From Candidatus Zhuqueibacterota bacterium (GTDB lineage Bacteria > Zhuqueibacterota > Zhuqueibacteria > Oceanimicrobiales > Oceanimicrobiaceae), in the NCBI GenBank assembly GCA_029262005.1, contig JAJDAG010000017.1, positions 13,473 to 77,472 on the forward strand: 64,000 nucleotides of DNA. The letters are read 5' to 3'. The notes beneath the pieces are model-generated. The model saw nothing but the letters and a program-made list of their open reading frames with translations. It did not search any database and had not been told where the DNA came from. This document shows, piece after piece, positions 5,394 to 52,515 of the stretch (position 1 is its first letter; every line of letters starts with the position of its first letter). The translations under genes and the position numbers were made by a program.

Positions 5394-5578
5394 TTTTTCT
5401 CAACAATTATTTTTAGCGCAATATCGTACTGAAAAAATCAACAAAAAGCAACTGCTATGAACGCCATTGTACTTTGCTTGTTACAAACAAAGTGATGTTC
5501 TTTAGAGAATAATCAGGAAAAGAAATGTCAGAGGTTGGTGTAAAAGCGGGTCAACAGGTATCCGAAAACAGCAACTCC

Positions 5579-6640: not shown

Positions 6641-6644
6641 TTAA

Positions 6645-14576: not shown

Positions 14577-14588
14577 CCTGCTTTTAAA

Positions 14589-36267: not shown

Positions 36268-37812
36268 TCAATGAACCCACGCAGGTAGAGAAGTAGTCGA
36301 AATTTCAAATAATGGGATGACCACAAAATAGGTCAAGAGGGTTACTAATACAATCCCTAATAAATTAAGCAGTATTCCGGTCTTGGCCATCTGCGATATT
36401 GAGACGTAGCCGGAGGCAAAAATAATGGCGTTCGGGGGAGTTGCAACAGGAAGCATGAACGCACATGAAGCGGAAATTGTCGCCGGTATCATCAACAAAA
36501 GAGGATTTATTCCTATGCCCGCAGCTGTGCTGGCAAGTATAGGCATGAAGAGACTGGTTGTTGCAACGTTAGAGGTCAACTCGGTTGTGAAAGTCATTGT
36601 AGTACACGTTATCAAGATCATTACTGGCAGCGGTACACTTCCTAACAAAGATAGTTGCGTACCGACCCACTCAGCCAAACCGCTGCTCTTGAATCCGCCC
36701 GCTAGCGCAATTCCACCACCAAACAAAATCAAGATTCCCCATGGAATTTTGAGCGCAGATTCCCAATCGAGCAAAAATTTACCCCTTTTCAAATTAGCAG
36801 GAATACAGAATAATATGATGGCAGCCAGCATGGCAACCGTGCCATCGTGCAAGAAATCGGAGGCACCAAGCATTGAGGACCATCCTTTCAACGTGGTAAA
36901 TCCGATGGTCACATCCTTTCTCGTGATCCAGGCAAGCGCTGTCGCCGCAAACACAGCAGCCACGAGCTTTTCTTCAATTAACATCGGGCCAAGCTTATTA
37001 AGTTCTTCACGAATCACCTGTCTGCCCCCAGGAAGATTTTTATTACTTACCCTGAACGCAATCCTGGTCAGAACAATCCAGCATATCGGCAAGAAAAACA
37101 GGAGCAAAAGAGACCCGATTAAAATCCAGGTAAAAAAACTAATTTCCGGTGCTTCAGGATAGAGTTTTGAAAAGGCACTAACGAAAACGATATTGGGGGG
37201 CGTGCCGACAAGAGTTGAGATGCCGCCTATACTGGCCGCGTAAGCAATGCCAAGCATAAGCGCAGTTCTGAAATTTAATATGCTGTCGTCGGAAGCTGCG
37301 CCCTCGCCAGGCTGCCCTTCCATTAAGTGAAGAATTACCGCCAGACCAATCGGGTACAGCATCATGGTTGTAGCGGTATTTGATATCCACATGGACAAGA
37401 AAGCCGTTGCCACCATAAAACCAAGAATGATACGCCGTGGGCTTGTACCGATTACCCATATGAGATAAAGCGCAATCCGGCGATGCAATCCCCACTTTTG
37501 CATGGCGATTGCAATAAAAAATCCTCCCATAAAAAGAAATACGTTGCTGTTGGCGTAACTCGCCGCCACATCTCCAAAGCCGACCACACCAAAGAAAGGA
37601 AATAAGATTAAAGGCAAAAGAGCCGTCACAGGAATCGGAATGGATTCCGTCATCCAGAGAATAGCCATGATTGCCGCGATGGCAAAAACCCGCCAACCTT
37701 CAGCTGATAAGCCGGCAGGTGCAGGCATCATCAGCAAAATGACGAAAAGCGGCAAAGTGATAACAAAACCGATTAGTTGACGCTTTGAATAGTTTTCAGA
37801 TTTGTTCGGCAT
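36268..37812 (-). CDS. DASS-family (SLC13-like) sodium-coupled di/tricarboxylate or sulfate symporter
   Basis: 514 aa polytopic membrane protein. Duplicated hairpin-loop motifs (TPPNAIIFASG, TLVGTPPNIV) typical of the divalent anion:Na+ symporter family. Confidence 0.8.
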   Translation of the reverse strand: MPNKSENYSKRQLIGFVITLPLFVILLMMPAPAGLSAEGWRVFAIAAIMAILWMTESIPIPVTALLPLILFPFFGVVGFGDVAASYANSNVFLFMGGFFIAIAMQKWGLHRRIALYLIWVIGTSPRRIILGFMVATAFLSMWISNTATTMMLYPIGLAVILHLMEGQPGEGAASDDSILNFRTALMLGIAYAASIGGISTLVGTPPNIVFVSAFSKLYPEAPEISFFTWILIGSLLLLFFLPICWIVLTRIAFRVSNKNLPGGRQVIREELNKLGPMLIEEKLVAAVFAATALAWITRKDVTIGFTTLKGWSSMLGASDFLHDGTVAMLAAIILFCIPANLKRGKFLLDWESALKIPWGILILFGGGIALAGGFKSSGLAEWVGTQLSLLGSVPLPVMILITCTTMTFTTELTSNVATTSLFMPILASTAAGIGINPLLLMIPATISASCAFMLPVATPPNAIIFASGYVSISQMAKTGILLNLLGIVLVTLLTYFVVIPLFEISTTSLPAWVH

Positions 37813-37925: not shown

Positions 37926-38672
37926 TCAAAATCCCGAGTAACTTCCTTCAAGTTCAGACGCGGCAGCCTTGTCAATCACAACAGTCGCAAATTCATGGAG
38001 TTGTACAATTGTCGCAGGATACTTTGCCATTACAGGACCCTCAACTGTAGCTTTTATTGCATCCGCTTTTGCAGCACCACTGGCCAATAAGAGGAGCTCA
38101 TGAGCCTGCATTATTGTGCCCACCCCCATGGTAATGGCATACGTGGGCACCTCGTCCATATTTTCAAAAAAACGAGCATTGTCCTCGCAGGTTTGAGCGC
38201 TAAGAGTTTTTATACGTGTTCTAGAGCCCAAAGAAGACCCTGGCTCATTAAAAGCGATATGGCCGTTTGCGCCAATTCCCAGAATTTGTAAATCGATACC
38301 ACCACATTCTTCAATTTTTTCTTCATACCATAAACAAAATTCGTCAATATTTTCCGCCATTCCCATTGGAACGTGAACATGTCGCGGATCTACATTGATA
38401 TGCTTAAATAAATTCTCCCACATGAAATAGTGATAGCTTTGTTCATGCGAGGGCGGCAGCCCAACATACTCGTCCAGGTTAAACGTAATGACTTTCGAAA
38501 AATCCAGCCCCTCCTCTTTGTGCAACCGAATCAACTCTTTATACATACCCAAAGGCGTACTGCCCGTTGCAAATCCGAGGACACAATCCGGTTTTCTACG
38601 GACCAAACTTGCAAATAGTTTTGCCGCGTCTTTGCTCATTTCTTCAAAATTCTCTTTTATAACAACCAACAT
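37926..38672 (-). CDS. nagB: Glucosamine-6-phosphate deaminase
   Basis: 248 aa with LGFATGSTPLGMY, FNLDEYVGLP and GIGANGHIAFNEPGSS motifs. The start ATG directly abuts the stop of the upstream 879-aa gene (TAAATG). Confidence 0.9.
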   Translation of the reverse strand: MLVVIKENFEEMSKDAAKLFASLVRRKPDCVLGFATGSTPLGMYKELIRLHKEEGLDFSKVITFNLDEYVGLPPSHEQSYHYFMWENLFKHINVDPRHVHVPMGMAENIDEFCLWYEEKIEECGGIDLQILGIGANGHIAFNEPGSSLGSRTRIKTLSAQTCEDNARFFENMDEVPTYAITMGVGTIMQAHELLLLASGAAKADAIKATVEGPVMAKYPATIVQLHEFATVVIDKAAASELEGSYSGF

Positions 38673-41312
38673 TTACTTCTTCGGATATCCTTCTTTTTCC
38701 AGCCAATATAGTAAATATGGGACATTATAAGCATGTGTCCAGCCGAAAACCCTTGAGCCGCCGTTAAGAGTCCAGTTAGGGCGCCTGTCCGGTGTCAATT
38801 CATTCGGGGGCATATGATCCACACTTTCAAGGGCATTAAATAATTCAAGTTGGGTGTGTGTGCCATCAAAGAGATTTGAATCGGAAAGTTTGTCTGTTTT
38901 CAAAAAACCGGCCCTTTTAACAGCTTCGCGATACAGGCTTGGTTCTCCAGAAAATTTATATCCAATTAACAAACTGTGAATAGTCGATAAAAACGATTCC
39001 ATTCCGTGATTTCTAGGTGGAACATCACGTACCCAGCGTGCATGACGTACAAGAGCTGGTTGAATCCTGTTGTCCTCTGTGATCTGGAAATATTTTCGTA
39101 ACCCATGTGATACATAGACCTGTGCATACCCGTAGCGATCCAGCACAAGACTGCCGCCCTGCGGCTGTTGCAAGCGCAACATTGTGTTCACCCGATCTTT
39201 TAACTCTTTAAAATAGCGCTCGTCCTTGGTCGCGTCATATATCTCCGCCAAGTTCCAGACAGACAGGTACAGGCGCCTTCCTCTCAAATCATGCTCACCC
39301 CAAATGCGCTTAATGTAGGTATCTGCGGTTAATTTCGCGACTTCTAAACCACGGTGATATCCACTTAGATAGTAAGAGGCGACCCAGCCCATATTCCAGA
39401 CGTGTGCGCTATATAACGTCCCCCAATGCTGCCTGCCCTCACGGGCGCCCATTCCAAGATATGGATTGCCCTGAGGTTTATCCTTCTCTTTCCAAAAGTC
39501 GAGTGCATAGTTAGAATCACCGGCATATTCAGGGTCGGCTGGCCAGTGAATATTGTCTACATCCATACTGTGACGGCTTGCCGCCTCCGCTGAAAGGTAG
39601 ATGTTACGATCGCCGGTTCGCATAAAGTGCAGCCAGCGCATGTAATCCTGACCCGGTTCGTTATTATTCCATAAAAACCAATCCATTTTGAAGTAATATG
39701 TTTGCCTGTCTCCATAGTCAAACATGCCGTACCAAGGTTCCCAATTCTCGTTGAAAATCATCCACTTGAACTTGTAATCTAATCCCCGCTCAAATTCAGG
39801 AAATTTCTTTGAAGCAGGTGCAAATGAACCGTATACATCACTCTTCGCATACCATTCCGGTGCTGTATGTGCGATAGGCGGATCGAGAAAATAGCGCATT
39901 TTGTTCTCAAGCTCGGCGTGACTCTTACCGGCTTTGTGAAAGTTATAAACCAACTCTGTCGTCTTTGTTAAACCTTGGGCAAAATTACTGACCATACCGC
40001 CGTCCAATTCACTGGAAAGACGGGCAAAACTCATGGGGTCAGCCTCGGGAGACCAGGAAAAAGCAGTCACTTCTTTTCCAGCCACATCAAGGTTGATTTC
40101 CTTTGGGTATTCTTCAAAAAAATGCCGCATTCCAACGCTGATTCCCCAACGCCGGTCCGAAATATCCAACCAACCATCGGCTTTGGAGGATTCCACCAAG
40201 GTTTCAGAATCGGAGGCAATCTTCGCGAAAAAACCGTCAATTCTCTTTTCCGGCGTAGAATTCGGGACGGGGGGCATACGCGTCGGTTTTGGACCGGACT
40301 GTAAAATAGACACCACTTCTTGCGAGGTAACTGCGGTTTCGAAGAACTGTCTTTCTCCCGGCTGCCACCATTCCCCTTTGCGATAAGCAGTCACATAATT
40401 CAGGTCTCCAGACAATTTGTAGTCTAGAGAAATGCCTGCTGCTGCTATTCTATCATTTGGCTGTGCCCAGCCAGCATCGCTGACCAAACTCTTTTCATCA
40501 ACGATTTTTTCAGCCTGAGTGGCAATCAAAGCATGTTCACCTTCAAAAGGTTTGTGCTTGTCGGGTTCCCCCGTGTATGTAAGTGTATGAAGCACACGAA
40601 CATAAGATTTTCCGGCATAGGCGTGTACTCTCATGATAAATGGAGAGGGATTATTATCATCCCGTGAATATTGATATTCACCTTCCGCTTTGATTATCAT
40701 GTGCAGGGGACCAGAGCCCTTCTCAATCCAATTTCTTTTGATCACCGCCTTGGATTTGTCAAGTCCGAGATCGTCAAGAATATCGAGAAATGAACCCCGC
40801 CCTTCCGGCCCCTCAGCTATCACGTCATTTTCATCAAATCCATCTCCGGCCCCATCCAGTTCCACTTTGTCCAAAAAGCCGTTACCGTTTTTATTTATTC
40901 GGAAACGAAGTGGGCCGGTGGATATCGTAATAAAACCCCGTGCGCGTTGGTTATTGTTTACTAGAATCCTCTCGCTTGGTATCGGGGCGCGAACAACGGT
41001 TTTGCCATACTCAAGGAAATAGTTGCCTGAATTCTCGCAAAAAAAGAACACCCAAATCCATTTAATGCTTTCATCAGCGGGCATCCACGTGGTGACTTCG
41101 GTGATTTGAGAAGGGATTTCCTTACCTTTGGCATTTAAAACGCGTACATGGTCGGGCGAATGCAATACACCTTTCGGAAAGGGGACTCCCAGCGTCAAGG
41201 GTGCCCCTTCAATAGGCTGATTCACCTTCAAAGGAAGCCTTGACTGAGCCAGTGAGGATCCAAAAAGTGCAAGCAACGAGATTATTGCAATTATTCCGGT
41301 AATTTTTTTCAC
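38673..41312 (-). CDS. Secreted 879-aa protein of unassigned family. Candidate glycan-active enzyme (possible (alpha/alpha)6-barrel hydrolase/lyase) of the amino-sugar PUL.
   Basis: Signal peptide MKKITGIIAIISLLALFGSSLAQS. N-terminal beta-rich region and a C-terminal Trp/Tyr-rich region (HWGTLYSAHVWNMGWVASYYLSGYH, DYMRWLHFMRTGD) reminiscent of alpha/alpha-toroid glycosidases. No GH18, GH20 or GH2 signature. Translationally coupled to nagB. Confidence 0.5.
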   Translation of the reverse strand: MKKITGIIAIISLLALFGSSLAQSRLPLKVNQPIEGAPLTLGVPFPKGVLHSPDHVRVLNAKGKEIPSQITEVTTWMPADESIKWIWVFFFCENSGNYFLEYGKTVVRAPIPSERILVNNNQRARGFITISTGPLRFRINKNGNGFLDKVELDGAGDGFDENDVIAEGPEGRGSFLDILDDLGLDKSKAVIKRNWIEKGSGPLHMIIKAEGEYQYSRDDNNPSPFIMRVHAYAGKSYVRVLHTLTYTGEPDKHKPFEGEHALIATQAEKIVDEKSLVSDAGWAQPNDRIAAAGISLDYKLSGDLNYVTAYRKGEWWQPGERQFFETAVTSQEVVSILQSGPKPTRMPPVPNSTPEKRIDGFFAKIASDSETLVESSKADGWLDISDRRWGISVGMRHFFEEYPKEINLDVAGKEVTAFSWSPEADPMSFARLSSELDGGMVSNFAQGLTKTTELVYNFHKAGKSHAELENKMRYFLDPPIAHTAPEWYAKSDVYGSFAPASKKFPEFERGLDYKFKWMIFNENWEPWYGMFDYGDRQTYYFKMDWFLWNNNEPGQDYMRWLHFMRTGDRNIYLSAEAASRHSMDVDNIHWPADPEYAGDSNYALDFWKEKDKPQGNPYLGMGAREGRQHWGTLYSAHVWNMGWVASYYLSGYHRGLEVAKLTADTYIKRIWGEHDLRGRRLYLSVWNLAEIYDATKDERYFKELKDRVNTMLRLQQPQGGSLVLDRYGYAQVYVSHGLRKYFQITEDNRIQPALVRHARWVRDVPPRNHGMESFLSTIHSLLIGYKFSGEPSLYREAVKRAGFLKTDKLSDSNLFDGTHTQLELFNALESVDHMPPNELTPDRRPNWTLNGGSRVFGWTHAYNVPYLLYWLEKEGYPKK

Positions 41313-41371
41313 GCCGGGAAACCTCCTAAGTTAGATGTCATCTCTATTGCGCTAAAGCAAACCAGTCAGTT

Positions 41372-42229
41372 CTATTCTTTGTGACCATCGTAATAAAGTG
41401 CAGCGGCTCCTAATATCGCTATGTGTTCAAGTTCAGAGACCTCAATCTGCAGAGACTTAATTGAATTTGGATATGCAAAGGATTGTATTGACGCCCACAA
41501 AGCGTCCTTGAAAAACCGAAAGGCCTTTCGAACTGAGCCGCCAAATATAATTATCTCAGGGTCGTATGCATAAAGAATCGTTTTAATACCTTCCCCTAAA
41601 TGCCGTCCGAACTCTGCCCACGCTTTCAAAGCTTCTTCTTCATCTCGCACTGCTCGCTGAAAAAACTCCTTGCTTGTTTGCTTAAAATTCCTGGTGAAGA
41701 ACTGACCGCAACAGTAGTGCTCATAAATACTGTCCCTATAAGGCATCATGCCGAATTCTCCGGCGCCACAATTTATCCCCGCATAGGACTTGCCGTTGAC
41801 GATGACGCCGCCGCCGAACCCAGTTCCCAGGATAAGTCCAATTAGCGATTCATACTCTACACCCTTGCCGAAATATTTTTCACCGAGTGCAAAGCAATTC
41901 GCATCGTTATTCACAAACGTAGGAGTAGAATACTTTTCTTCCAATATGGACTTAATAGGCACTTTCTTCCAGGACGGTATATTCTGAACATCATAAACGA
42001 TGCCGTTTTTAATATCCACCACACTGGGGACACCAATGCCAATACCATCGAGGTTTTCAGGCTTGCTCTTATCTATTAATGCGCAAATCTGATCCAAAAC
42101 TTCATCCTCTGAACCTTTTGGATTTATTTTCACTGAGGACACCTCACCGAGCTGTTGATTGCGCACCAGGCCGACACGAACGTTAGTACCTCCTAAATCA
42201 ATTCCTAATATATTTTGCTCCTGCATCAC
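41372..42229 (-). CDS. ROK/BadF-type sugar kinase (putative GlcN/GlcNAc kinase)
   Basis: N-terminal ATPase motif ILGIDLGGTNVRVGLV and GTGFGGGVIVNG. Lacks the canonical ROK Cys-rich zinc motif. Confidence 0.65.
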   Translation of the reverse strand: MMQEQNILGIDLGGTNVRVGLVRNQQLGEVSSVKINPKGSEDEVLDQICALIDKSKPENLDGIGIGVPSVVDIKNGIVYDVQNIPSWKKVPIKSILEEKYSTPTFVNNDANCFALGEKYFGKGVEYESLIGLILGTGFGGGVIVNGKSYAGINCGAGEFGMMPYRDSIYEHYCCGQFFTRNFKQTSKEFFQRAVRDEEEALKAWAEFGRHLGEGIKTILYAYDPEIIIFGGSVRKAFRFFKDALWASIQSFAYPNSIKSLQIEVSELEHIAILGAAALYYDGHKE

Positions 42230-42307: not shown

Positions 42308-43627
42308 CTATGCTGATTCCTTTTTACGAAGGTCGATTGTCTCATTCGTAATCAAGGGCTTAGCCCAGAAGCCGATGCTCATGATATAGCCCATGGCCAA
42401 ATACAGGAACAGCATTCCGTTTCTCAACCCAAAGATATCTCCAAGTCCACCAACAATTAACGGTAAAACAGCGCCGCCTATAATAGCGGTGACCAGAATT
42501 CCAGAAAAACTTCCGTGATGTTCTTCAACCGAATTGAGCGCCAGGGAAAATATAACCGGGTACATGACAGAGGAAAAAAAGCCAACCAAAGGAAAAGCAA
42601 TTAATGCGACCGAACCCGACATAAACAAGGCGGCAGTTAGGCTAACCATGGCTGCAATGGTAAATATCACAAGGACAATTTTGCTATCGAGCAATTTCAA
42701 CAATACGATACCCGCGATGCCACCAATAGTCATAGCTCCCCAGAACCATGCGACTGTTGTGGCGCCCGTGGTTTGTGGATCATAGCCATGATATTTATTG
42801 AGGAATTCAGATATCCAGTTTGCTACACCCTGCTCAAGCCCCACGTAAGTAAATATTCCAAGGAAAAATAAAATAACAGTTGGATTCTTAAGTAATTCAA
42901 GGTGAGTTTTTAAAGCGCCAACATGTTCGTCAGCTTTGCGCTCAACTTCAGGAATTTTTGAAACAAAAATGATTCCAACCATGAGCAGAGAAATAACAGC
43001 GAAAAGCCAATATAGGGATATCCAGGGTATATTTTCAGGAACGATCTTTGATAATGTCATGATCAAGATGTTTGAATCGGAAGATTCTTTCTCAAGATTG
43101 AGCACGAGATATGAATATACCAGAGGACTTATGAATGAGGCAGCGCCGAAAATCAATTGAGCTACTGTGGCATTAAATGCGAAGTGTTCCTCTCCCCCGG
43201 CTTCCCTCAACAAAGGATTAATAGCGACCTGCAACATGGCCATTCCAGAACCGATAAGAAACAGAGAAAAAACCGCAGTCAAATAACTTGGAAAGGCCGC
43301 CAAAATTAATGAGCCCAAAGACGCAATGGCGAAGGACGCAATCATGACGGGCTTTTCCTGGTATTTCTCAATGAGCAATCCCGCAGGAATCGACATAACG
43401 CCATAGGCGATAAAAAACGCGAACGGCAGCACAGCGACAAGGGTTAGGCTTAGCTCAAAATCATCTATAATCTCAGGAACGAGCGGACCAATGATGTTTG
43501 TTAAGAACGAAATAACAAAAAAGGTGAGAAAAATGAGACCGACGACAAAATAGCTTCTTCGAATTGGAATATCCTCCTTTTGGGTGAAATGCGAGGGCCC
43601 TATGGTGAGACTGTGGTACAAATACAA
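42308..43627 (-). CDS. MFS sugar permease (GluP/FucP/NagP-like)
   Basis: 439 aa, 12 predicted TM helices, 6+6 arrangement with a central loop. Sugar-porter-like motifs. Confidence 0.8.
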   Translation of the reverse strand: MYLYHSLTIGPSHFTQKEDIPIRRSYFVVGLIFLTFFVISFLTNIIGPLVPEIIDDFELSLTLVAVLPFAFFIAYGVMSIPAGLLIEKYQEKPVMIASFAIASLGSLILAAFPSYLTAVFSLFLIGSGMAMLQVAINPLLREAGGEEHFAFNATVAQLIFGAASFISPLVYSYLVLNLEKESSDSNILIMTLSKIVPENIPWISLYWLFAVISLLMVGIIFVSKIPEVERKADEHVGALKTHLELLKNPTVILFFLGIFTYVGLEQGVANWISEFLNKYHGYDPQTTGATTVAWFWGAMTIGGIAGIVLLKLLDSKIVLVIFTIAAMVSLTAALFMSGSVALIAFPLVGFFSSVMYPVIFSLALNSVEEHHGSFSGILVTAIIGGAVLPLIVGGLGDIFGLRNGMLFLYLAMGYIMSIGFWAKPLITNETIDLRKKESA

Positions 43628-43648: not shown

Positions 43649-44557
43649 TTACTTCAACATGGGGAATAACCTCTTGATTTCTTCGTCACTGGGCTGCTTA
43701 CCGTACTCGCATATTTCAAATGCTTCGGCATATTTTACATCAGTGGCTTTGTGAGTTCCGTACCATTTTTCAAGCGAGTCCCGGAGTTCAGGTGAGATAG
43801 AGGAACCCTGGTAGACCCCGAACACCTCCTTTAACCATTTCTTGCGGTCGGCAGCGCCTTCAGGTACTTCATCCGCTCTTCCCACTGTCCATGGCATCCA
43901 TTCATAAAACTGGGAAACGTGCGCATCCAGGCCAGCCATCTTTTTATCAACGGTTTTGTCGATAGCTACTGCTATGTCGGGTCGAAATGGATTCGGCCGC
44001 TGGAAACGATCGCTGAAATAAAGAAAAATCGGATTTTTTTTCAACGGCGGTGTATCCGGCGTGACATTCGGCACGATTACCAGATAGGCGGCATCCTGGA
44101 CCAACTCGCCCGTATAACGGTGGTCCGGATGGTAGTCATTCGGACGAGGAGAAAGCACAACGTCAGCATTCCACTTCCGGATTTCCCGTATGATCTGATG
44201 CCTGACTTTCAGACTGGGTACCAACTCAGCATCATGATTGTCTAAAGTAACATATTCGTCGATGCCTAAACGATGGGCGGATTCTTGGGCTTCGGCACGT
44301 CTGCGCCTGGCGAGGGCGCCACCGCCTTCTGTTTGGTGTCCGGCATCCCCATTGGTGACAGACACAAACTTCACCGCGTGCCCCATTTCGGCAAAAAGGG
44401 CGGCGGTGCCGCCAAACTTTGCATCGCAGTCGTCCGGGTGAGCTCCAATAGCTATGATTCGAAGCTTCCCACCATCCGTACCCGAACTTTGTGCGAATGA
44501 TAAAATGGTACTTAAAAGTATTGATGTAAGAACTAATAACTGCTTCATGGTATGCAC
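43649..44557 (-). CDS. PIG-L/LmbE-family N-acetylglucosaminyl deacetylase with signal peptide (periplasmic)
   Basis: Signal peptide MHTMKQLLVLTSILLSTILSFAQS. Zinc-binding motif IIAIGAHPDDCDAKFGGT and HPDH downstream. Confidence 0.75.
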   Translation of the reverse strand: MHTMKQLLVLTSILLSTILSFAQSSGTDGGKLRIIAIGAHPDDCDAKFGGTAALFAEMGHAVKFVSVTNGDAGHQTEGGGALARRRRAEAQESAHRLGIDEYVTLDNHDAELVPSLKVRHQIIREIRKWNADVVLSPRPNDYHPDHRYTGELVQDAAYLVIVPNVTPDTPPLKKNPIFLYFSDRFQRPNPFRPDIAVAIDKTVDKKMAGLDAHVSQFYEWMPWTVGRADEVPEGAADRKKWLKEVFGVYQGSSISPELRDSLEKWYGTHKATDVKYAEAFEICEYGKQPSDEEIKRLFPMLK

Positions 44558-44581: not shown

Positions 44582-45556
44582 TTATTTTCGACCACTACCG
44601 ATTCCATCGGGCGCGCCTTTGTAATAGCGAAATCCTTCCATTGGTTTGCCGTCCCGCATTGGAATTTTTTTCATTCTCTCCAGAAACTTCTTGCGATCTT
44701 CTGGTTTTAGATCATCGGGACTAGGACCTGTGTAGTTGTTCCACGCTGCACTCATCTGACTTATATGCTGTGAACGCGCCTTTATTTTTTTCTCCTCGTG
44801 TCCGGTGATATCAACCCAGGTGTTAATATCTTTTTCAACGCCGCCATAAAACATATATTCCGGAATGGCATGGGCTTCGAGACCTTCATGGATGATTTGT
44901 GCAGGGAAAATTAAACGCCACTCAGCGGCACGTGCAGCATCCACCGACAGATAAGATGCCGCGCGGTGATCAGTCTTATGCCAGCGCACATAACCATGTC
45001 CCGGATCCCATGAGAACAGCACATCCGGCTTAATTTTTCGATAATGCCAGACCAGCCGCTGCACAACTTCTTCTTTGTCGGCAAACTCAACCATGCCATC
45101 GGTGTACCCAAGATTGATATAATGATCTGCCGGAATACCTAATTCAGCAAGCGCGTTGAGTTCTTCCTGACGCCGAATTTTGGACAGTCTGTCCCGGGTC
45201 ATGGTCGGGTCCTTAGTGCCCACATTACCGGTGGTCAGAAGAAGCACGTAGACTTCGTTGCCATTTTCTTGAAGGAGGGAGAGTGTCCCATATCTTCCGG
45301 CATCATCATCGGGATGAGCTCCAACCAATAGTATGGTCTTGCCTGTCCACTGTTCAACTGGCACCTCAGGTTGTCCAATAACCAGAACCGGCACCAAGAG
45401 AAATGCAGCCAACCAAGCTGTGACAAGTTTTGCACTACGCATAACATCTCCTATTCCTTTAATAATAACATCTGTTTTTTGTTCATCAAAAATGTAAATG
45501 TGACTGGCTCCAGTTATTTTCAAAACATAGAAATACCGGAGCCAGTCACAGCTCAC
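44582..45556 (-). CDS. Second PIG-L/LmbE-family deacetylase, secreted. The likely true start is the MRSAK Met near 45445.
   Basis: Signal-like LVTAWLAAFLLVPVLVIG. ILLVGAHPDDDAGRYGT zinc motif and a later HxxH region. Confidence 0.7.
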   Translation of the reverse strand: MSCDWLRYFYVLKITGASHIYIFDEQKTDVIIKGIGDVMRSAKLVTAWLAAFLLVPVLVIGQPEVPVEQWTGKTILLVGAHPDDDAGRYGTLSLLQENGNEVYVLLLTTGNVGTKDPTMTRDRLSKIRRQEELNALAELGIPADHYINLGYTDGMVEFADKEEVVQRLVWHYRKIKPDVLFSWDPGHGYVRWHKTDHRAASYLSVDAARAAEWRLIFPAQIIHEGLEAHAIPEYMFYGGVEKDINTWVDITGHEEKKIKARSQHISQMSAAWNNYTGPSPDDLKPEDRKKFLERMKKIPMRDGKPMEGFRYYKGAPDGIGSGRK

Positions 45557-45570: not shown

Positions 45571-47019
45571 CTAATAGCCAGGATTTTGTGTCAGGCCTAA
45601 ATCTACCTCTCTTTGAGGGATAGGAAACAATAAATTGTTGGCGCCAGGCTGCGGAAATCCTTCAGCCGTCATGTGAGACTGCATCACTTCCAGAGCTCTT
45701 CCAAACCGCAGCAGGTCATACCAGCGGTGATTTTCAAAGGCCAGTTCTATTCTCCTTTCGTGGAGTAATTTGTCTTCGAACGATCCAGGCGTACTGGCGT
45801 CAATATCAGCCAGGCCGGCACGACTCCTCAGTTGATTTATCAAACCGTAGGCCTCTCCACCCTCACCAATAGCCTCCGCGAGCATAAGCAATACATCAGC
45901 ATAACGGAATACGGTGAAATTGTTATTGGCGTCATTATCGCCCGATGGCACACTCAAGTATTTCTTGATATACCTGGCATTTTGTGTAGCGCCGACCGCA
46001 TCCACGTAAGTCGTATCCATCGAGACAAAAAAGCGCGTATCATCCGGTTCATAAGCGTCAAGCATACTAAGGGTAGGCCTGTTGCGACCGCCGCTATCAA
46101 ATCCACCCACCAAATTCGAACTCGGCGAGAAGGATTGGCTATATCCGCTGCCCTCGCCAAATCCGCCGGACTTGAACTGGACCTCAAAGATAGATTCCGC
46201 ATTCAATTCATTTGCCGAGCCCCACAGGTCTGCATAACCGGATACCAATTGAAATGCACCGCTGTTAACAACTTCACGCAGAACAGATGCAGCAGAAGCC
46301 GAGTTCCCGGCAGTCAGGTACACCTTGGCTAACAAAGTTAGAGCTGCTCCCTTTGTCGCTTTGCCGCCAACTGTTGACGGGTGCACCTCGGGAAGTTTAC
46401 TTGCCGCATCAGTTAAATCAGTAATCAATTGCTCCAAAACGGTTGCAGCGGGAACCTGCGAGATCTGCTCAGAGACTGAAACAGTTTCGGTGATCGGCAT
46501 AGGAATATTTCCGAACAGCAGGGCTAAGTTATAATAAAGTAAAGATCTCAGAAAAAGCGCCTCCCCGGTAAAGCGATCTTTGTTTGGATTGATTCCAAAA
46601 TCTACATCGCCGATACGGGAGAGAACCGTGTTGGCCCTGGCAATCCCCGAGTAGGAGCCGACCCAGGCACCAAGGACAATTTCGTTTAAGGCGTCCTCTG
46701 TAAACTGGTTGATGACGGCTACCTGGAAAGAGAGGCCTGTCACATCGGCTCCCTGATCCGTGTTGTCCGATCTCATTTCCGTAAGCATCCAATAGCCACC
46801 TGTACCACCTGTGGCAACTGCACCGGTGGTTCCGTAGGTACCCCCGCCTTGTAAAGCATCGTAGATGCCGTTTACCGCAATCTCAATATCTGTTGCTGTA
46901 TTATAAAAATTTTCAACATTTCTTTCCGAATGCGGCGCCAATGACGTGAAATCATTGGAACACGACAATATAAATAATAATGAGAGCAGTAGGGATGCTG
47001 GAATTATTTTCTTCCTCAT
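45571..47019 (-). CDS. susD: SusD/RagB-family outer-membrane nutrient-binding lipoprotein
   Basis: Lipoprotein signal LLLSLLFILSCSNDF. SusD-like TPR helices (AVNGIYDALQ, RSLLYYNLALLFGNIPM). C-terminal region ends LTQNPGY. Confidence 0.85.
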   Translation of the reverse strand: MRKKIIPASLLLSLLFILSCSNDFTSLAPHSERNVENFYNTATDIEIAVNGIYDALQGGGTYGTTGAVATGGTGGYWMLTEMRSDNTDQGADVTGLSFQVAVINQFTEDALNEIVLGAWVGSYSGIARANTVLSRIGDVDFGINPNKDRFTGEALFLRSLLYYNLALLFGNIPMPITETVSVSEQISQVPAATVLEQLITDLTDAASKLPEVHPSTVGGKATKGAALTLLAKVYLTAGNSASAASVLREVVNSGAFQLVSGYADLWGSANELNAESIFEVQFKSGGFGEGSGYSQSFSPSSNLVGGFDSGGRNRPTLSMLDAYEPDDTRFFVSMDTTYVDAVGATQNARYIKKYLSVPSGDNDANNNFTVFRYADVLLMLAEAIGEGGEAYGLINQLRSRAGLADIDASTPGSFEDKLLHERRIELAFENHRWYDLLRFGRALEVMQSHMTAEGFPQPGANNLLFPIPQREVDLGLTQNPGY

Positions 47020-47051: not shown

Positions 47052-50000
47052 TTAGAAGGTAATGTTAGTCCCTACTATCCAGGTTTTTGTCAGTGGGTAG
47101 GCTCCATAATCTTCTCCCTGAACGAGCATGTTTTGTGACTGAAGACTGACTTCTGGGTTAAACCCGATGTAGTCCGTAAGCGTAAAAAGATTTTTGCCGG
47201 TTATGTAGATTCTCACACCCTGAGCAACTCTGCTGGTCAAGGAGCGCGGAAGTCTGTACCCAATAGTAAGGTTTCTCAAGCGGAAATATGAACCATCCTC
47301 AACCTGATATGAAGACGGTCTATTGTTATTACCCTGCAACCCGGTTTGGCGATCGGCCCTGGGAGTTTGACCATTTCCGGGCTCTTCTGCAGAACGCCAG
47401 CGCTCATTAAGAATACCATAACTGTTAAAATTGGCCTCACCGTTTTTCATATGCCGGGCGGTAAGATTCATTATTTCCCGACCCTCAACGCCTTGGAAGA
47501 AGATACTCAGATCAAAGTTTTTGTAATGAAACCTGTTGGTAATCCCATAAATAAAATCGGGATGATAACTACCGGTAATCGTTCTGTCGTCGGTATTTAT
47601 GATGCCATCACCGTTGATGTCCTTGAATCTAAAATCACCGGGTTTGGGATCGGGTGCATTGGCATCCTGAGGTGCATTAGCAATATCCGCCTCTGACTGA
47701 TAGATACCGTCAACGACCCAGCCATAATAGCTGCCAAGCTCTTCCCCAACCTGAGTGATGTGCCTGATGCCGGCACCGCCAGCAGCCAGGATAGGTTCAT
47801 CTCCCGGGCCTAATTCAAGAACCTTGTTGTCATTAGCTGCGAAATTAAACTCGGTGGACCATTGGAATGCTCCAACCATGTTCCTTGAAGTAAGTGAGAG
47901 TTCGAAGCCTTTATTTTGCACCCTGCCAATGTTCTGCAAAGCGTTCGTAAAACCGGTTGCCGACTGCACCCCTACTTGAAGAAGCAAATCCTCAGTTTTA
48001 CTATTGTACCAATCGAAAGTACCATAAATTCTGTCTTCCAACAGCGCATAGTCGATTCCAAGATCAACTTGTTTTGTTGTCTCCCAGCCCAGTTTTTCAT
48101 TACTGATTGTTGCCGGGAATACAGCGCTAACAGGCTGATCATCGTCAATGTAGAGCTCTTGACCCAATAAGCCGATGGCCCCATAATTAGGAATCAGGAA
48201 GTTACCGGTCTCACCATAACTCGCTCTCAATTTAAATTCACTCAGGAAGCTAAGCTTCTCCTTCACAAACTCTTCTTGGGCCATTCGCCAGGCCACTGAA
48301 AATGAAGGGAATATGCCCGTTTGATTTCCCGGCCCAAATCTGGATGACTTATCTGAACGAATCGTAGCGGTCAATAGATATTTGTATTTGTAATTATAGT
48401 TAATTCGTGCCAACAAGGACACTAGAGACCATTCCTCTTTAACGCTGTTTCCATCCGTAACCAAGCCACCGGAAAGGGTCTGTACCTGATCATCCGGGAA
48501 GTTGCGAGCTATCACGGTATTTGTTTGACTCACGTCTTTCTGTGCAGTATAACCTAAAAGGGCTGTCAAATTATGAGCGTCCCTCACAACTTTTTTATAA
48601 TTTAGTGTATTTTCCCAAACCCAGTTAGTTCTCGTTGCCGAACTACTTTGGGCATAAGGGTCGCCTGTTGTTGCTGTTCTGTACAACAGACTATTGCCCC
48701 TGAAGAAAGAACCTTGAAAATTGTCTAGATCGACGCCAAACATCGATCTAAAAGTAAGATCTTTGACGAGAGAAATATCTGTGTAAATATTACCGAATGT
48801 TCTATGGTTGGCCAGACTTTCGTCAATACCGTCAATGATAGCTAATGGATTGCTGGCGGATGTGGTACCGCCGTCCAGAAAGGACTGAGCGCCATCGGCC
48901 GCACGCTGGTTGGGCCTGCCAAGATCATCAAAAGGCTTTACGACCGGAGAATGTACCATTGCCGAATAGACGATACCGGGAGGTCTGCCAAAATACGGCG
49001 CATTTGCAGGGACTCTATCGTTTTCAGTAAAAGCAGCATTAATGTTAGCGCCAAATGTTATGGATTCATTTAAATCGCCAACAAAACGCGCGCTTAAGGT
49101 GTATCTCTTAAATTGAGAATTTTCTATAATTCCATCTTGCTTTAGGTAGCCGCCGGAGATGTAATATGAACTATTTTGACCGCCACCCGTGACTGACACA
49201 TTAGAATTCGTAATTGGCGTAGAACTGAAGATAAGATCAAGCCAATCCGTATCCGTTCCATCCCAATTGACATATTGATCAGGCATCGTAAAATTGCCGG
49301 ATAAACCAGCACGCCCGTCATTGTTAGCCGGATTATAATTGGGGTTGTAATTAGCGCTACTCGGATTCAGAGGGTCCAAGTTGTCAATGTAATTGTTATT
49401 CCTGGCATCTTGTGTATAGGCTATTAATTCCTCAGCATTCATCATATCAGGCTGGTTTGCAACCGACTGAGTTCCCGTGTAGGCATCAAACCTGATGGTT
49501 GGCTTGCCGCCGCGCTTTCCTTTCTTGGTTGTAATCAGAACCACACCGTTGGATCCCCTTGAACCGTAAATAGCGGCGGCTGAGGCATCTTTCAAGATCT
49601 CAATGGATTCAATATCGGCTGGGTTTAACGCGGCCAGCGGATTTGTTGCCGGTGGCTTAAAGGCGGCACGACGCCGAAATAAAGTGCCCTGAAGATTCAA
49701 ATTTTTGGAAATCGGCAACCCATCGAGAACATACAATGGATCGTTTCCAGCGCTGATTGAGCCTGTTCCTCTTATTCGAATATTAGGTTCACCACCCGGT
49801 TCACCGGTATTTTCCTGAACATCAACACCCGATAGTTGGCCCTGGATAGCCTGCTCAAAACTAAGAACCGGGATATCTCTCAATGTCGCTGCCGAGATTC
49901 GAGAAACCGAACCCGTAACCTCTCTCCGTTGCTGAGTACCATACCCAACGACCGTCACCTCTTCCCCGCGAAGGACCTCGGAGGCCATGAACATATCGAT

Positions 50001-50630
50001 CTCACCACGACCACCGACGACAATTTCCTGACTCTTATACCCGACATATGTAAACACCAGGATGTCTTGCGGCGAGATATTTTCCAACTGATACTTGCCA
50101 TCGCTATCAGTAGTGGTCCCCGTCTGGGTGCCCTTCACCACAATATTTAGTCCTGGCAGCGGGGACCTGTCATCTTCGTCAACAACTCGCCCGGTAACCC
50201 GATGTGTCTGGACAATTACGCTAGTCGGTTCAGGGCCGGCAGCCGGCTCTATCTGCTGAAGAACCACAGTCCTGGTACCAACTTTTTTGTAGCCAATCGG
50301 ATGTTCGCCCAGAGTCGCTTCCAGGGCTTCTTGAAATTTTTTAGAAGAAGATGCCAACAGTGGCGCGGTTCGCCCGTTAACAACTTCATCATCATAAACG
50401 ATATAGACACCATAGGTTTCTTCGAGCTTGGACAGCGCCGCTCCCAAAGTCACGGATTGCCAGGCTGCCTGGTTTAAAAGCAGCCGATCAACAGTCTTGG
50501 ACGCCAGTTGTTGGGCCAGACTGTTCGTTGCAAGCATTCCAAGCACAACCACAAGGCATACAGTAATAAAGCGTCGCATAATTCTTCCTCCATTAGTAAT
50601 TACGGCACAGCATGTTAAGTAAAAAGTCAC
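47052..50630 (-). CDS. susC: SusC-like TonB-dependent transducer with an N-terminal STN signalling domain and a carboxypeptidase-regulatory-like domain. The true start is probably MRRFITV near 50579.
   Basis: STN-like N-terminal extension (SVTLGAALSKLEETYGVYIVYDDEVV). CarbopepD_reg_2 block (VTGRVVDEDDRSPLPGLNIVVKGTQTGTTTDSDGKYQL). Plug, 22-strand barrel, C-terminal TonB-receptor ending NITF. Confidence 0.9.
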   Translation of the reverse strand: MTFYLTCCAVITNGGRIMRRFITVCLVVVLGMLATNSLAQQLASKTVDRLLLNQAAWQSVTLGAALSKLEETYGVYIVYDDEVVNGRTAPLLASSSKKFQEALEATLGEHPIGYKKVGTRTVVLQQIEPAAGPEPTSVIVQTHRVTGRVVDEDDRSPLPGLNIVVKGTQTGTTTDSDGKYQLENISPQDILVFTYVGYKSQEIVVGGRGEIDMFMASEVLRGEEVTVVGYGTQQRREVTGSVSRISAATLRDIPVLSFEQAIQGQLSGVDVQENTGEPGGEPNIRIRGTGSISAGNDPLYVLDGLPISKNLNLQGTLFRRRAAFKPPATNPLAALNPADIESIEILKDASAAAIYGSRGSNGVVLITTKKGKRGGKPTIRFDAYTGTQSVANQPDMMNAEELIAYTQDARNNNYIDNLDPLNPSSANYNPNYNPANNDGRAGLSGNFTMPDQYVNWDGTDTDWLDLIFSSTPITNSNVSVTGGGQNSSYYISGGYLKQDGIIENSQFKRYTLSARFVGDLNESITFGANINAAFTENDRVPANAPYFGRPPGIVYSAMVHSPVVKPFDDLGRPNQRAADGAQSFLDGGTTSASNPLAIIDGIDESLANHRTFGNIYTDISLVKDLTFRSMFGVDLDNFQGSFFRGNSLLYRTATTGDPYAQSSSATRTNWVWENTLNYKKVVRDAHNLTALLGYTAQKDVSQTNTVIARNFPDDQVQTLSGGLVTDGNSVKEEWSLVSLLARINYNYKYKYLLTATIRSDKSSRFGPGNQTGIFPSFSVAWRMAQEEFVKEKLSFLSEFKLRASYGETGNFLIPNYGAIGLLGQELYIDDDQPVSAVFPATISNEKLGWETTKQVDLGIDYALLEDRIYGTFDWYNSKTEDLLLQVGVQSATGFTNALQNIGRVQNKGFELSLTSRNMVGAFQWSTEFNFAANDNKVLELGPGDEPILAAGGAGIRHITQVGEELGSYYGWVVDGIYQSEADIANAPQDANAPDPKPGDFRFKDINGDGIINTDDRTITGSYHPDFIYGITNRFHYKNFDLSIFFQGVEGREIMNLTARHMKNGEANFNSYGILNERWRSAEEPGNGQTPRADRQTGLQGNNNRPSSYQVEDGSYFRLRNLTIGYRLPRSLTSRVAQGVRIYITGKNLFTLTDYIGFNPEVSLQSQNMLVQGEDYGAYPLTKTWIVGTNITF

Positions 50631-51903: not shown

Positions 51904-52515
51904 TTATGTCGGGGGCGCCAGCAGCGTCTTAAGACGGTGGTATGCTTCCGACAAATAATTGCGTACGACTTGGGGTCTTACGCTCATAATCTCGGCGATT
52001 TCTTTATAGGTTAGATTGTCATTCATCTTAAGATAAAGCGCCTCCCGCATCCGCGCCGGAATCTTTTTAAATGCAGACCGAAGCCTTTTCTGTTCAAATG
52101 TTTCCTGCTCTGCAAATATCATCAAATCTTCCAGTGTAAACACGTTGTCAACTTGTTCCACCGTAAACTCTTGATGAGCTGTTTCTTGCCGCCGTTGCTT
52201 GCTAAGGGTATTCAACAAACGGCGGCGCAATGAAACAAGCAGATAGGCTTTAATTGAATCCACCGATGAAAGATTTCTTCGTTTTTCCCAAATATATAAA
52301 AACAGTTCCTGGATAGCGTCTTTTACTAACTCTTCTTCTCTGGCCAGTTTTACGCCATAGTCGAATAGGTAAGAATAATAGGCTCGAAACAAAGACTCCA
52401 AAGCCTGAGCATCGCCTTTTTTTAACCGCGCCCAAACTTGACGCTCCTTTTGAATTCGCTCAAGCTTATCGGACGACTCTAAAGAATTTGAAATAGATAC
52501 GTTATTATTTTTCAA
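51904..52515 (-). CDS. ECF sigma-70 factor controlling the PUL
   Basis: Region 2 (YYSYLFDYGVKLAREEELVKDAIQELFLYIW) and region 4 HTH (LTYKEIAEIMSVRPQVVRNYLSEAYHRLK). Confidence 0.85.
   Translation of the reverse strand: MKNNNVSISNSLESSDKLERIQKERQVWARLKKGDAQALESLFRAYYSYLFDYGVKLAREEELVKDAIQELFLYIWEKRRNLSSVDSIKAYLLVSLRRRLLNTLSKQRRQETAHQEFTVEQVDNVFTLEDLMIFAEQETFEQKRLRSAFKKIPARMREALYLKMNDNLTYKEIAEIMSVRPQVVRNYLSEAYHRLKTLLAPPT

Follow-up and report, generated by a model that had tools for sequence, protein, structure and literature searches.

What does the 879-residue protein encoded next to nagB in an amino-sugar operon cleave? The operon lies in a 64-kb stretch of DNA (the window, meaning the whole stretch analysed), and an earlier note had taken this protein for an orphan secreted enzyme and a candidate exo-β-glucosaminidase or hexosaminidase, or a lyase. 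The genes of the locus, all on the minus strand, are given below in the direction of transcription, with the landmarks of the gene under study (the target).

The operon and the target gene

51904..52515, minus strand: ECF sigma factor, opening the locus
50655..51758, minus strand: FecR-type anti-sigma factor (domain match)
47052..50630, minus strand: SusC/RagA TonB-dependent transporter (TIGR04056, 915.7 bits)
45571..47019, minus strand: SusD-like lipoprotein (SusD_RagB domain)
44582..45556, minus strand: PIG-L/LmbE de-N-acetylase, A type, accessory (best solved relative 8bgn, E 5e-18)
43649..44557, minus strand: PIG-L/LmbE de-N-acetylase, B type, with signal peptide (best PDB match 8bgn, E 2e-22)
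42308..43627, minus strand: MFS sugar permease, GluP/FucP/NagP-like (profile matches)
41372..42229, minus strand: ROK-family sugar kinase, presumed glucosamine (GlcN) kinase (profile matches)
41322..41327, minus strand: Shine–Dalgarno AGGAGG of the target, 9 nt 5′ of the GTG, read from the sequence
38673..41312, minus strand: target ORF, 879 aa, GTG start and TAA stop, predicted exported enzyme of the PcRGLX/PL26 superfamily
41247..41312, minus strand: predicted signal peptide of the target, residues 1–22, VKKITGIIAIISLLALFGSSLA, then QS, read from the sequence
38670..38675, minus strand: TAAATG junction of the target stop (TAA, 38673–38675) and the nagB start (ATG, 38670–38672), zero spacer
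37926..38672, minus strand: nagB, glucosamine-6-phosphate deaminase (TIGR00502, 316.7 bits against a cutoff of 236.9; NF001684, 349 against 326)
36268..37812, minus strand: SLC13-type DASS sodium:di/tricarboxylate (or sulfate) symporter, last gene of the operon (domain matches)

From FecR to DASS the intergenic gaps are 0–113 nt, and the sigma/FecR gap is 145 nt; scanning the operon for promoters and terminators showed no signal above shuffled expectation that would separate the genes, and the 1.1-kb gap 3′ of the operon has no Rfam match. The adjoining SusC/RagA and SusD genes and the co-directional enzymes make this a SusC/SusD-type polysaccharide utilisation locus. The true start of the A-type PIG-L is probably Met39 at 45442, the first residue of its signal peptide. 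The DASS protein scores best to the dicarboxylate carrier NaDC1 (334 bits), followed by NaCT (320), NaDC3 (312) and NaS1 (294).

The target begins with what looks like a Sec signal peptide (VKKITGIIAIISLLALFGSSLA/QS) that has no lipobox Cys, in keeping with the export signal claimed earlier; because the peptide holds no Cys, export is predicted to be of the Sec/SPI type and the mature protein is probably periplasmic. No other glycosidase or lyase domain was found in the sigma-to-DASS operon or elsewhere in the 64-kb window, which leaves the target, as the earlier note had said, the sole candidate bond-cleaving enzyme of the locus.

The target belongs to the PcRGLX/PL26 superfamily

Three Pfam models match the target in the expected order and above their gathering cutoffs (residues 32–85, 125–252 and 478–589), and these matches, together with an AlphaFold2 (AF2) model (pLDDT 80.9, pTM 0.86), establish the target as a PcRGLX/PL26-superfamily protein with three domains: a RIFT barrel, a β-sandwich and an (α/α) toroid. 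Domains and conserved motifs are as follows.

41058..41219, minus strand: N-terminal RIFT-barrel domain, residues 32–85 (PF19501, 28.8 bits against a cutoff of 22.1; strands in the AF2 model)
39903..40940, minus strand: central β-sandwich domain, residues ~125–470 (PF21345, 69.4 bits against 23.5; all-β in the AF2 model)
38676..39881, minus strand: C-terminal (α/α) toroid, residues 478–879, presumed catalytic (PF21346, 40.6 bits against 23.8; AF2 helices 465–874)
39708..39734, minus strand: motif WYGMFDYGD, residues 527–535 (PcRGLX counterpart WYGFLDYGD)
39546..39572, minus strand: motif H581-x-x-D584-x-D586-x-x-H589 (PcRGLX counterpart HTGEVDVYH)
39423..39455, minus strand: motif GMGAREGRQHW, residues 620–630 (G-x-G-x-R-H-x-x-Q-H-W in other orthologues and PcRGLX)

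In the model, residues 24–460 are all-β and residues 465–874 helical, and the Trp plus Tyr content rises from 4.7% in residues 1–470 to 12.0% in residues 471–879; the β-rich N-terminal region and the Trp/Tyr-rich, (α/α)6-toroid-like C-terminal region described from the sequence are thus both borne out. The structural comparison that the earlier note had called for matches the whole chain to the solved superfamily member PcRGLX, the first neighbour, followed by the toroids GH105, GH88, GH76 and AGE. Against PDB 5xq3 (PcRGLX) the target gives an E value of 4e-16 as a single sequence and 1e-26 as a family profile; the identity of 15–17% is remote but significant, and conservation of the lyase mechanism across it is an assumption. 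The 120 homologues listed of 546 matches are 53–89% identical to the target and nearly all full length, a tight orthogroup by sequence, and at E ≤ 1e-3 the wider superfamily numbers 2,494 cluster representatives. With these relatives and its Pfam and PDB matches the protein is no orphan, nor does it found a new, unrecognised fold family, since the superfamily is already modelled in Pfam.

PcRGLX itself, from Penicillium chrysogenum (CAZy PL26; PDB 5XQ3, 5XQG, 5XQJ and 5XQO), has the same three domains, about equal length and the shared motifs WYGxxDYGD, WxNxE, RTG, RHxxxVDxxH and GxGxRHxxQHW. Polar residues strongly conserved across the superfamily are E508, Y528, D535, R565, H581, D584, D586, H589 and R654, of which Y528, D535, R565, H581, D586 and H589 sit in motifs common to the target and PcRGLX; Y528, G534 and D535 of the WYGMFDYGD motif are likewise kept superfamily-wide. 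The best-conserved polar cluster comprises H581 (79 of 84 distant superfamily members), D584 (78 of 84), D586 (74 of 84) and H589 (69 of 84), and may form a catalytic or metal site. The two proteins differ at position 625, where PcRGLX retains the His conserved elsewhere but the source clade of the target carries Glu (this clade also has Ala at 623), and past residue 640, where no sequence alignment with PcRGLX is possible. PcRGLX is a secreted fungal enzyme acting on pectin, whereas the target is bacterial, predicted to be periplasmic and encoded in an amino-sugar operon without pectin context.

The DxxDxDxE (GH18) and HxGGDE (GH20) motifs are absent from the target, as had been noted, and we found neither a GH18 or GH20 Pfam domain nor homology to the catalytic domains of GH2 (CsxA), GH35 (GlmA) or GH9, the exo-β-D-glucosaminidase families. 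An NCBIfam profile search of the target matched no model. A match to GH127/GH146 (DUF1680, PF07944) was rejected at 16.9 bits, below the cutoff of 24.9 and without a single significant stretch.

A conserved neighbourhood includes a dicarboxylate carrier

We compared 83 related loci, 47 of them well covered, that is, with at least 8 kb upstream and at least 3 kb downstream. The near-universal partner of the target is an adjacent PIG-L/LmbE de-N-acetylase (45 of the 47 well-covered loci), alongside a TonB-dependent receptor (42), a ROK kinase (40) and an MFS permease (39), a core arrangement kept in Rhodocaloribacter, Salinibacter, Blastocatellia and Pedobacter. The PIG-L, ROK and MFS counts uphold the functional tie to glucosamine catabolism that the earlier note had proposed. 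That note had drawn the tie from nagB, whose start does abut the target stop, again with zero spacer in L007, L008 and L009, the three closest relatives; this coupling is confined to the KSB1/Caldithrix clade plus a handful of other loci and was overstated as a general feature, nagB being present in 4 of the 47 well-covered loci and 7 of all 83.

Overlooked in that note was a C4-dicarboxylate-type carrier, which lies within the operon in 26 of the 47 loci as an SLC13-type DASS protein or as DctA, depending on lineage. The DASS gene starts −4 to ~30 nt after the target in many Balneolaceae and Salinivenus loci and, in locus L037, stands between the target and a second PIG-L gene; in Pedobacter and Chitinophagaceae its place is taken by DctA (NF002461, 569 bits; cutoff 513), whose gene lies 17–22 nt before the sigma gene or −76 to 103 nt from that of the big PIG-L. 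Of the 47 well-covered loci, 21 have no such carrier, among them L009, the closest relative, and those of the Acidobacteria.

The related loci share no conserved gene for a chitinase, GH20, NagA or pectin/uronate breakdown, and GH18, GH19 and GH20 genes occur in none of the 83. Genes for rhamnosidase, GH28, GH105, PL9/PL11 and uronate catabolism are neither present in the window nor conserved in the 83 loci, and no cysteine or cystine transporter is conserved.

Accessory genes differ by lineage: a periplasmic CxxC redoxin is encoded in 5 loci, an N-methyl-amino-acid-oxidase-like flavoenzyme in 4, and in two Sediminibacterium loci the target is followed instead by a lactate-family permease and a glycerate 2-kinase. 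A 45%-identical paralogue adjoins genes for an MFS permease and a NAGPA phosphodiester α-GlcNAc-ase, with no PIG-L. Hosts of the related loci include hypersaline Salinibacter and sediment KSB1.

The partner PIG-L enzymes resemble Dac

The B type makes up 46 of 57 small PIG-Ls. The B-type partner of the target scores 83 bits to archaeal diacetylchitobiose deacetylase (Dac) against 62 bits to BshB, shares HPDHRxTG with Dac and has Tyr in place of BshB Arg109, a residue that docking and mutagenesis work places in contact with malate (PMC4101496). On the BshB1 model it reaches 118.7 bits, below the equivalog cutoff of 182.5, and the A type reaches 57 bits on the BshB2 model, below the cutoff of 195. 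In calibration a genuine BshB1 scored 276 bits and a genuine Dac 110 bits on the BshB1 model, so that the 118.7-bit match is not diagnostic, and we rejected it as support for bacillithiol. BshB (GlcNAc-malate deacetylase) and Bca/BshB2 (bacillithiol-conjugate amidase) belong to the LmbE family, as does the partner of the target, and act on GlcN(Ac)-malate-type glycosides, the sole natural C4-dicarboxylate kind known (PMC4101496). They are cytoplasmic and biosynthetic or detoxifying, whereas the PIG-Ls of the window are predicted to be exported, are no nearer BshB1 than a genuine Dac and lack Arg109.

A proposed route for glucosamine release

The conserved gene order strongly suggests that the target provides the GlcN-releasing step after de-N-acylation. 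In the route that we propose, SusC/D would import a small GlcNAc-type glycoside, a periplasmic PIG-L/LmbE amidase would strip its N-acyl group, and the target would cut the bond between the resulting glucosamine and the aglycone. Free GlcN would then pass through the MFS permease to be phosphorylated by the ROK kinase and deaminated by NagB, making NagA unnecessary; Bacteroidales ROK kinases phosphorylate both GlcN and GlcNAc (PMC11300592).

From the presence of a C4-dicarboxylate carrier in the operon, we take the aglycone to be a C4-dicarboxylate. The proposed substrate is GlcN-α(1→2)-L-malate, which forms the core of both bacillithiol and its precursor GlcNAc-malate and is, to our knowledge, the only natural GlcN–C4-dicarboxylate glycoside; we know of no enzyme that cleaves it. 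Work in FEBS Letters in 2018 reportedly found PcRGLX to be exo-acting at the reducing end of a sugar-α-1,4-uronate, a geometry that would resemble sugar-O-malate. In malate the C3 proton is α to the carboxylate at C4, and C2 carries the glycosidic oxygen, so that PL26 chemistry is possible: β-elimination on GlcN-malate would yield GlcN and fumarate, and hydrolysis would yield GlcN and malate.

Cleavage of bacillithiol-derived GlcN-α-1,2-malate by either chemistry is the reading that we tentatively prefer. Prediction or direct evidence places bacillithiol and N-methyl-bacillithiol in Bacteroidetes, Acidobacteria, Chlorobi, Firmicutes and Deinococcus-Thermus (PMC6282198), a spread that should make the compound widely accessible, and the CxxC redoxin and N-methyl-amino-acid-oxidase-like genes would suit a thiol or N-methyl-cysteine conjugate. 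Counting against it are the Dac-like character of the PIG-Ls, the loci without a carrier (21 of 47), the lack of a conserved cysteine or cystine transporter, Glu625, the 15–17% identity to PcRGLX with its assumed lyase mechanism, and the glycerate 2-kinase loci of Sediminibacterium. The narrower version, a 'glycoside-malate lyase' acting by β-elimination on the malate aglycone and forming with the PIG-Ls the first known route of bacillithiol catabolism or scavenging, is unlikely. A literature search found no precedent for catabolism of bacillithiol or GlcN-malate and nothing on the target orthogroup, its characterisation or a PL26 plus CE14 locus.

Alternative substrates and functions

The idea of the earlier note, an exo-β-D-glucosaminidase forming the bacterial counterpart of the archaeal chitin pathway, strikes us as rather unlikely. 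The Dac-like PIG-L would deacetylate the non-reducing end, the target would hydrolyse GlcN-β-1,4-GlcNAc, and the leftover GlcNAc would be deacetylated in turn, all GlcN proceeding through MFS, ROK and NagB. Chitin oligomers are ubiquitous, (α/α)6 toroids frequently host hydrolases, archaeal Dac is the best solved relative of both PIG-Ls, and a Dac-like deacetylase, one cleaving enzyme, a GlcN kinase and a GlcN-6-P deaminase without NagA follow the logic of the Thermococcus Dac/GlmA/GlmD route for chitin (PMC6566704), in which Dac (CE14) deacetylation likewise precedes cleavage by GlmA (GH35). The target, however, is unrelated to GlmA, and the proposed periplasmic, SusC/D-fed steps and the dicarboxylate carrier set the operon apart from the archaeal pathway. 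This reading leaves that carrier, which comes from two unrelated families, unaccounted for; the sole characterised relative of the target is a lyase, and β-elimination is impossible on chito-oligosaccharides; and no locus supplies GH18, GH19 or GH20.

It is similarly doubtful that the same release of GlcN after de-N-acylation serves a different glycoside, such as a GlcN glycoside of another organic acid, an amino sugar with an N-linked dicarboxylic acyl group freed by the PIG-L, or α-GlcN(Ac) from teichoic-acid-like, heparosan-like or GPI-like material. The conserved core of PIG-L, target, MFS and ROK would fit such a substrate, as would the paralogue with NAGPA instead of a PIG-L, the two loci with permease and glycerate kinase, and the lineage-variable accessory genes; but no specific compound known to us suits so widespread a locus as well as GlcN-malate or chito-oligomers do, and polymers normally demand more enzymes, none of which is conserved. 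The GalNAc deacetylase and GH36 galactosaminidase pair of Flavonifractor plautii, known from blood-group A conversion, belongs to unrelated families, involves GalN instead and shares only generic-domain homology.

A non-cleaving target, either a periplasmic binding or scaffold protein or a toroid isomerase or epimerase like the AGE family, which neighbours it in structure, is improbable given the superfamily-wide polar conservation, the motifs shared with a proven lyase and a pathway that would otherwise have no enzyme to free the sugar. That the target is a true PL26 exo-rhamnogalacturonan lyase is exceedingly improbable and was rejected on gene context: the PcRGLX homology spans all three domains and NCBI and UniRef call some homologues 'exo-rhamnogalacturonan lyase family protein', but identity is low, the window and the 83 loci lack pectin genes, the genes conserved alongside the target are those for an N-deacetylase and for amino sugars, and Salinibacter and KSB1 are among the hosts.

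Implications

The PcRGLX-like superfamily comprises some 2,500 cluster representatives at 50% identity, among which we found one characterised member, the fungal pectin lyase. The context of the target orthogroup is unusually clean and conserved and points to a glucosamine-based substrate, unlike pectin; activity on such a substrate, if shown, would be a second function for the superfamily and would correct the spreading 'exo-rhamnogalacturonan lyase' names. The outcome would be either a new enzyme family in the turnover of chitin and amino sugars or the first pathway for degrading bacillithiol-type glycosides. Among the low-molecular-weight thiols of bacteria, bacillithiol is proposed to be the most widespread, and the second outcome, if true, would be the more interesting, bringing a new reaction for the lyase fold and a new class of SusC/D nutrient. 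Given the many phyla and habitats in which the locus is found, the process would be widespread in ecological terms, and a bacillithiol scavenging route, if real, would span hypersaline Salinibacter to soil Acidobacteria through a SusC/D locus.

A PL26-like protein in a probable amino-sugar scavenging operon

The target gene lies where the earlier note had placed it, with its length and start as follows:

38673..41312, minus strand: ORF of the target protein, 879 codons, GTG start
9 nt upstream of the GTG start, minus strand: AGGAGG, read from the sequence

The N-terminus of the protein, VKKITGIIAIISLLALFGSSLA followed by QS, can be read as a Sec signal peptide with no lipobox, in agreement with the proposed export. 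Its AlphaFold model (pLDDT 80.9, pTM 0.86) is all-beta as far as residue ~460, with helices over residues 465–874, and Trp and Tyr together make up 4.7% of the N-terminal half and 12.0% of the C-terminal half, upholding the proposed division into a beta-rich N-terminal and a Trp/Tyr-rich C-terminal region.

All genes of the locus are on the minus strand, in the order ECF sigma factor, FecR anti-sigma factor, SusC, SusD, A-type PIG-L, B-type PIG-L (both PIG-L/LmbE de-N-acetylases), MFS sugar permease, ROK kinase, target, nagB and an SLC13-type DASS symporter, with gaps of 0–113 nt from FecR to DASS and of 145 nt between sigma and FecR. Anthranilate synthase genes precede the locus, and shikimate-pathway genes follow past a 1.1-kb gap. 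The TAA stop of the target directly abuts the ATG of a 248-aa ORF, which is nagB (NCBIfam TIGR00502, 316.7 bits, cutoff 236.9). Both PIG-L proteins carry signal peptides, which would place both de-N-acetylation and the target reaction in the periplasm. No other carbohydrate-active domain was found in the locus or the rest of the 64 kb, and the target thus stands, as the earlier note had it, as the sole candidate bond-cleaving enzyme.

The mechanically called ORF of the A-type PIG-L (44582-45556) is probably 38 codons too long at its 5' end, the likely true start being a Met at 45442 that opens a typical signal peptide, MRSAKLVTAWLAAFLLVPVLVIG. The gap of about 1.1 kb between DASS and aroA (35169-36267) contains no ORF of at least 150 aa and gave no Rfam match at E ≤ 0.1. 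Farther off, a 190-aa ORF (53578-54150, minus strand) holds the N-terminal domain of anthranilate synthase component I and only the last ~53 residues of the chorismate-binding domain, and overlaps the next gene, a glutamine amidotransferase (53025-53597, minus strand), by 20 nt; its structure suggests a trpE shortened by internal deletion or truncation, or else an error of assembly.

A tight orthogroup within a large superfamily

Described earlier as an orphan, the target in fact belongs, by domain models and fold, to the PcRGLX-like superfamily. It contains three PcRGLX-like Pfam domains, in order and all above cutoffs, and matches PcRGLX, the solved PL26 exo-rhamnogalacturonan lyase of Penicillium chrysogenum, at E 4e-16 as a single sequence and at E 1e-26 with the orthogroup profile, at 15–17% identity. 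Relatives are numerous: in a word-index search, the best 120 of 546 matches are 53–89% identical to the target and nearly all full length, the top one (89%) coming from a KSB1 bacterium, and a genome scan found 243 relatives, the nearest (85–88%) in Caldithrix and KSB1 MAGs, which makes this lineage the probable origin of the window. Clustering at 50% reduces the orthogroup to one or two representatives, beyond which there is a gap and then proteins of ~30–39% identity, often multidomain, with 2,494 cluster representatives at E ≤ 1e-3. The orthogroup is thus a tight one within a large, almost wholly uncharacterised superfamily, with PcRGLX among its remoter members. The database name ‘rhamnogalacturonan lyase’ is wrong for it, and a literature search found nothing published on the orthogroup or its type of locus.

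Other family assignments were tried and rejected. The target is unrelated to the exo-glucosaminidase families known so far (GH2, GH35 and GH9) and to families GH18, GH20 and GH127, and a motif search of the target found neither the GH18 nor the GH20 catalytic motif; the absences of GH2, GH18 and GH20 features had been correctly noted before.

The conserved partner is a de-N-acetylase

We fetched 80 related genomic loci, and six more through exact-protein look-ups, called their ORFs and clustered these by all-against-all BLASTP. Among the 47 well-covered loci (at least 8 kb upstream and at least 3 kb downstream), a PIG-L gene is present in 45, as a form of ~300 aa or, in Acidobacteria and Pedobacter, of ~920 aa; a TonB-dependent receptor is found in 42, a ROK protein in 40 and an MFS permease in 39. 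Bacteria in culture that have the locus include Gracilimonas tropica DSM 19535, Pedobacter caeni DSM 16990, Daejeonella oryzae DSM 19973, Salinibacter ruber and Rhodocaloribacter litoris. The obligatory partner of the target is the de-N-acetylase, and among the small PIG-Ls the B type (43649-44557 in the window) is the general partner (46/57) and the A type an accessory. By contrast, nagB occurs in only 4 of the 47, or 7/83 of all loci, and its stop/start abutment with the target is confined to the window and the three relatives closest to it. The coupling to nagB claimed by the earlier note is therefore genuine but lineage-specific. The related loci contain no conserved cluster of glycoside hydrolase, chitinase, hexosaminidase, NagA, rhamnosidase or uronate genes.

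Individual loci depart from this pattern. The target is duplicated in L047 (Daejeonella oryzae), where a PIG-L lies between the copies, and in L081 (a Saprospiraceae MAG), where they are adjacent. The nagB adjoining the target in L031 (Cytophagales MAG, 12770-14692) has 640 aa and so matches the NagB-LmbE fusion family (PRK02122) in size; if it is such a fusion, deaminase and PIG-L domain would be joined in one protein. In L052 (Prolixibacteraceae MAG, 8135-10526), the only locus with another glycosidase close by, the target–PIG-L pair is followed by a LamG-like protein and a GH29 alpha-L-fucosidase, which may belong to a neighbouring locus. Finally, in L087 (ENA k141_5126488, 1524-7078), P0121, a 45%-identical paralogue of the target, follows an MFS permease and an NAGPA ‘phosphodiester glycosidase’ (GlcNAc-1-phosphodiester alpha-N-acetylglucosaminidase family). 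Here NAGPA takes the place of the PIG-L, which hints that target-related enzymes act on alpha-GlcNAc conjugates too.

Two unrelated dicarboxylate carriers

Downstream of the target, 33 loci have a DASS gene, often at a gap of −4 to ~30 nt; in L037 it sits between the target and a second PIG-L. Pedobacter, other Sphingobacteriaceae and Chitinophagaceae lack DASS and have in its place the C4-dicarboxylate transporter DctA (NF002461, 569 bits, cutoff 513), either by the large PIG-L, at a distance of −76 to 103 nt, or 17–22 nt ahead of the sigma gene. One or the other carrier is present in 26 of the 47 well-covered loci. The best score of the window's DASS, 334 bits, is with the human dicarboxylate carrier NaDC1; the sulfate carrier NaS1 gives 294 bits. 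DASS and DctA are unrelated families whose common substrate class is C4-dicarboxylates; that both have been inserted into the same operon, by three or more distinct arrangements, speaks for a C4-dicarboxylate among the pathway's products.

Conserved residues

The target orthogroup and PcRGLX have in common the motifs WYGxxDYGD, WxNxE, RTG, RHxxxVDxxH and GxGxRHxxQHW, and E508, Y528, D535, R565, H581, D584, D586, H589 and R654 are conserved superfamily-wide. These motifs and residues would suit a His/Tyr or metal-assisted lyase site, and likewise an acid/base hydrolase site, and do not discriminate between the two. One segment sets the window's clade apart:

39423-39455, minus strand (residues 620-630): GMGAREG in the target and its orthologue P0001, GMGSREG in the orthologue P0002

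The remaining 32 aligned orthologues all read G-[MI]-G-[RK]-R-H-[GAS] here, and PcRGLX has GLGTRHG; among the aligned orthologues, the near-invariant His625 is thus replaced by Glu only in the clade of the target, P0001 and P0002.

Candidate substrate and reaction

We consider it likely that the target performs the glucosamine-releasing step after de-N-acylation. The locus has only two catalytic exported proteins, and the substrate should therefore present just two kinds of bond for cleavage, an N-acyl amide and a single glycosidic bond. Expected products are an acyl group, glucosamine (handled by MFS, ROK and NagB) and, in most lineages, a C4-dicarboxylate. To our knowledge, the only natural compound of this composition is GlcNAc/GlcN-alpha(1->2)-L-malate, the precursor and core of bacillithiol (Cys-GlcN-malate), which we put forward as a tentative candidate substrate. 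The bacillithiol deacetylase BshB and amidase Bca are themselves PIG-L/LmbE enzymes (PMC4101496), and the occurrence of bacillithiol and its N-methyl derivative, demonstrated or predicted, extends over Firmicutes, Deinococcus-Thermus, Chlorobi, Bacteroidetes and Acidobacteria (PMC6282198). With so broad a distribution, wide release from lysed cells is to be expected.

To cleave a sugar-alpha-1,4-uronate, PL26 abstracts the proton alpha to a carboxylate, and the glycosidic oxygen is expelled from the beta carbon. GlcN-O-malate carries its glycosidic oxygen on C2 and has, on C3, a proton alpha to the C4 carboxylate; elimination would yield glucosamine and fumarate. By this analogy the chemistry fits the one known activity of the fold. 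Hydrolysis, which would instead give malate, is just as compatible with the context. The lyase version we regard as rather unlikely.

Several observations speak against GlcN-malate. First, the B-type PIG-L is closer to the archaeal diacetylchitobiose deacetylase Dac (83 bits) than to BshB (62 bits), has the Dac motif HPDHRxTG and carries Tyr at the malate-contacting Arg109 of BshB. Its match to the BshB1 model (118.7 bits) was discarded as support for bacillithiol, a real Dac scoring 110 and a real BshB1 276. Second, the carrier is absent from 21 of the 47 loci, among them L009, the closest relative, and the loci have no conserved cysteine or cystine transporter. Third, two Sediminibacterium MAG loci (L078, 7224-10443; L083, 12680-15900) have after the target a transporter of the L-lactate permease family and a glycerate 2-kinase (DUF4147/MOFRL), a different organic-acid module that replaces DASS/DctA and has no obvious fit to malate. 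Fourth, Glu replaces the otherwise conserved His625 in the window's clade, and PcRGLX is a remote relative.

Accessory genes in some lineages are suggestive but weak when read with GlcN-malate in mind. Five Chitinophagaceae loci (L063, L073, L078, L082 and L083) encode, downstream of the target, an exported protein of ~417 aa that ends in a redoxin/AhpC-TSA domain and has a WCPNC motif, a periplasmic CxxC redoxin. In four Cytophagales loci (L015, L016, L023 and L039), a sarcosine/N-methyltryptophan-oxidase-like FAD enzyme adjoins the PIG-L or the target, accompanied in L015 and L016 by DUF2911-TPR and Glyoxalase_3 proteins between SusD and PIG-L.

The earlier note's idea of an exo-beta-glucosaminidase, which would here act in a bacterial counterpart of the Thermococcus Dac/GlmA pathway, accords with the Dac-like PIG-Ls and the absence of NagA, but we think it improbable: a route to glucosamine and acetate only leaves the dicarboxylate carrier in the operon unexplained, none of the 83 loci has a chitinolytic gene, and the target is of lyase ancestry. 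The target may function in the manner of the archaeal GlmA step, or of the enzyme pair that first deacetylates and then cleaves the amine sugar of blood-group A antigen, but belongs to none of those families. A true pectin lyase is very unlikely, the pectin context that defines PL26 having been looked for and not found.

The target is a real, well-delimited, widely conserved and uncharacterised enzyme with a clear pathway role, and what is new here is the presence of a PL26-like fold among the genes of an amino-sugar scavenging operon. It is a good subject for biochemistry, with two substrate hypotheses that differ sharply and are easy to test.
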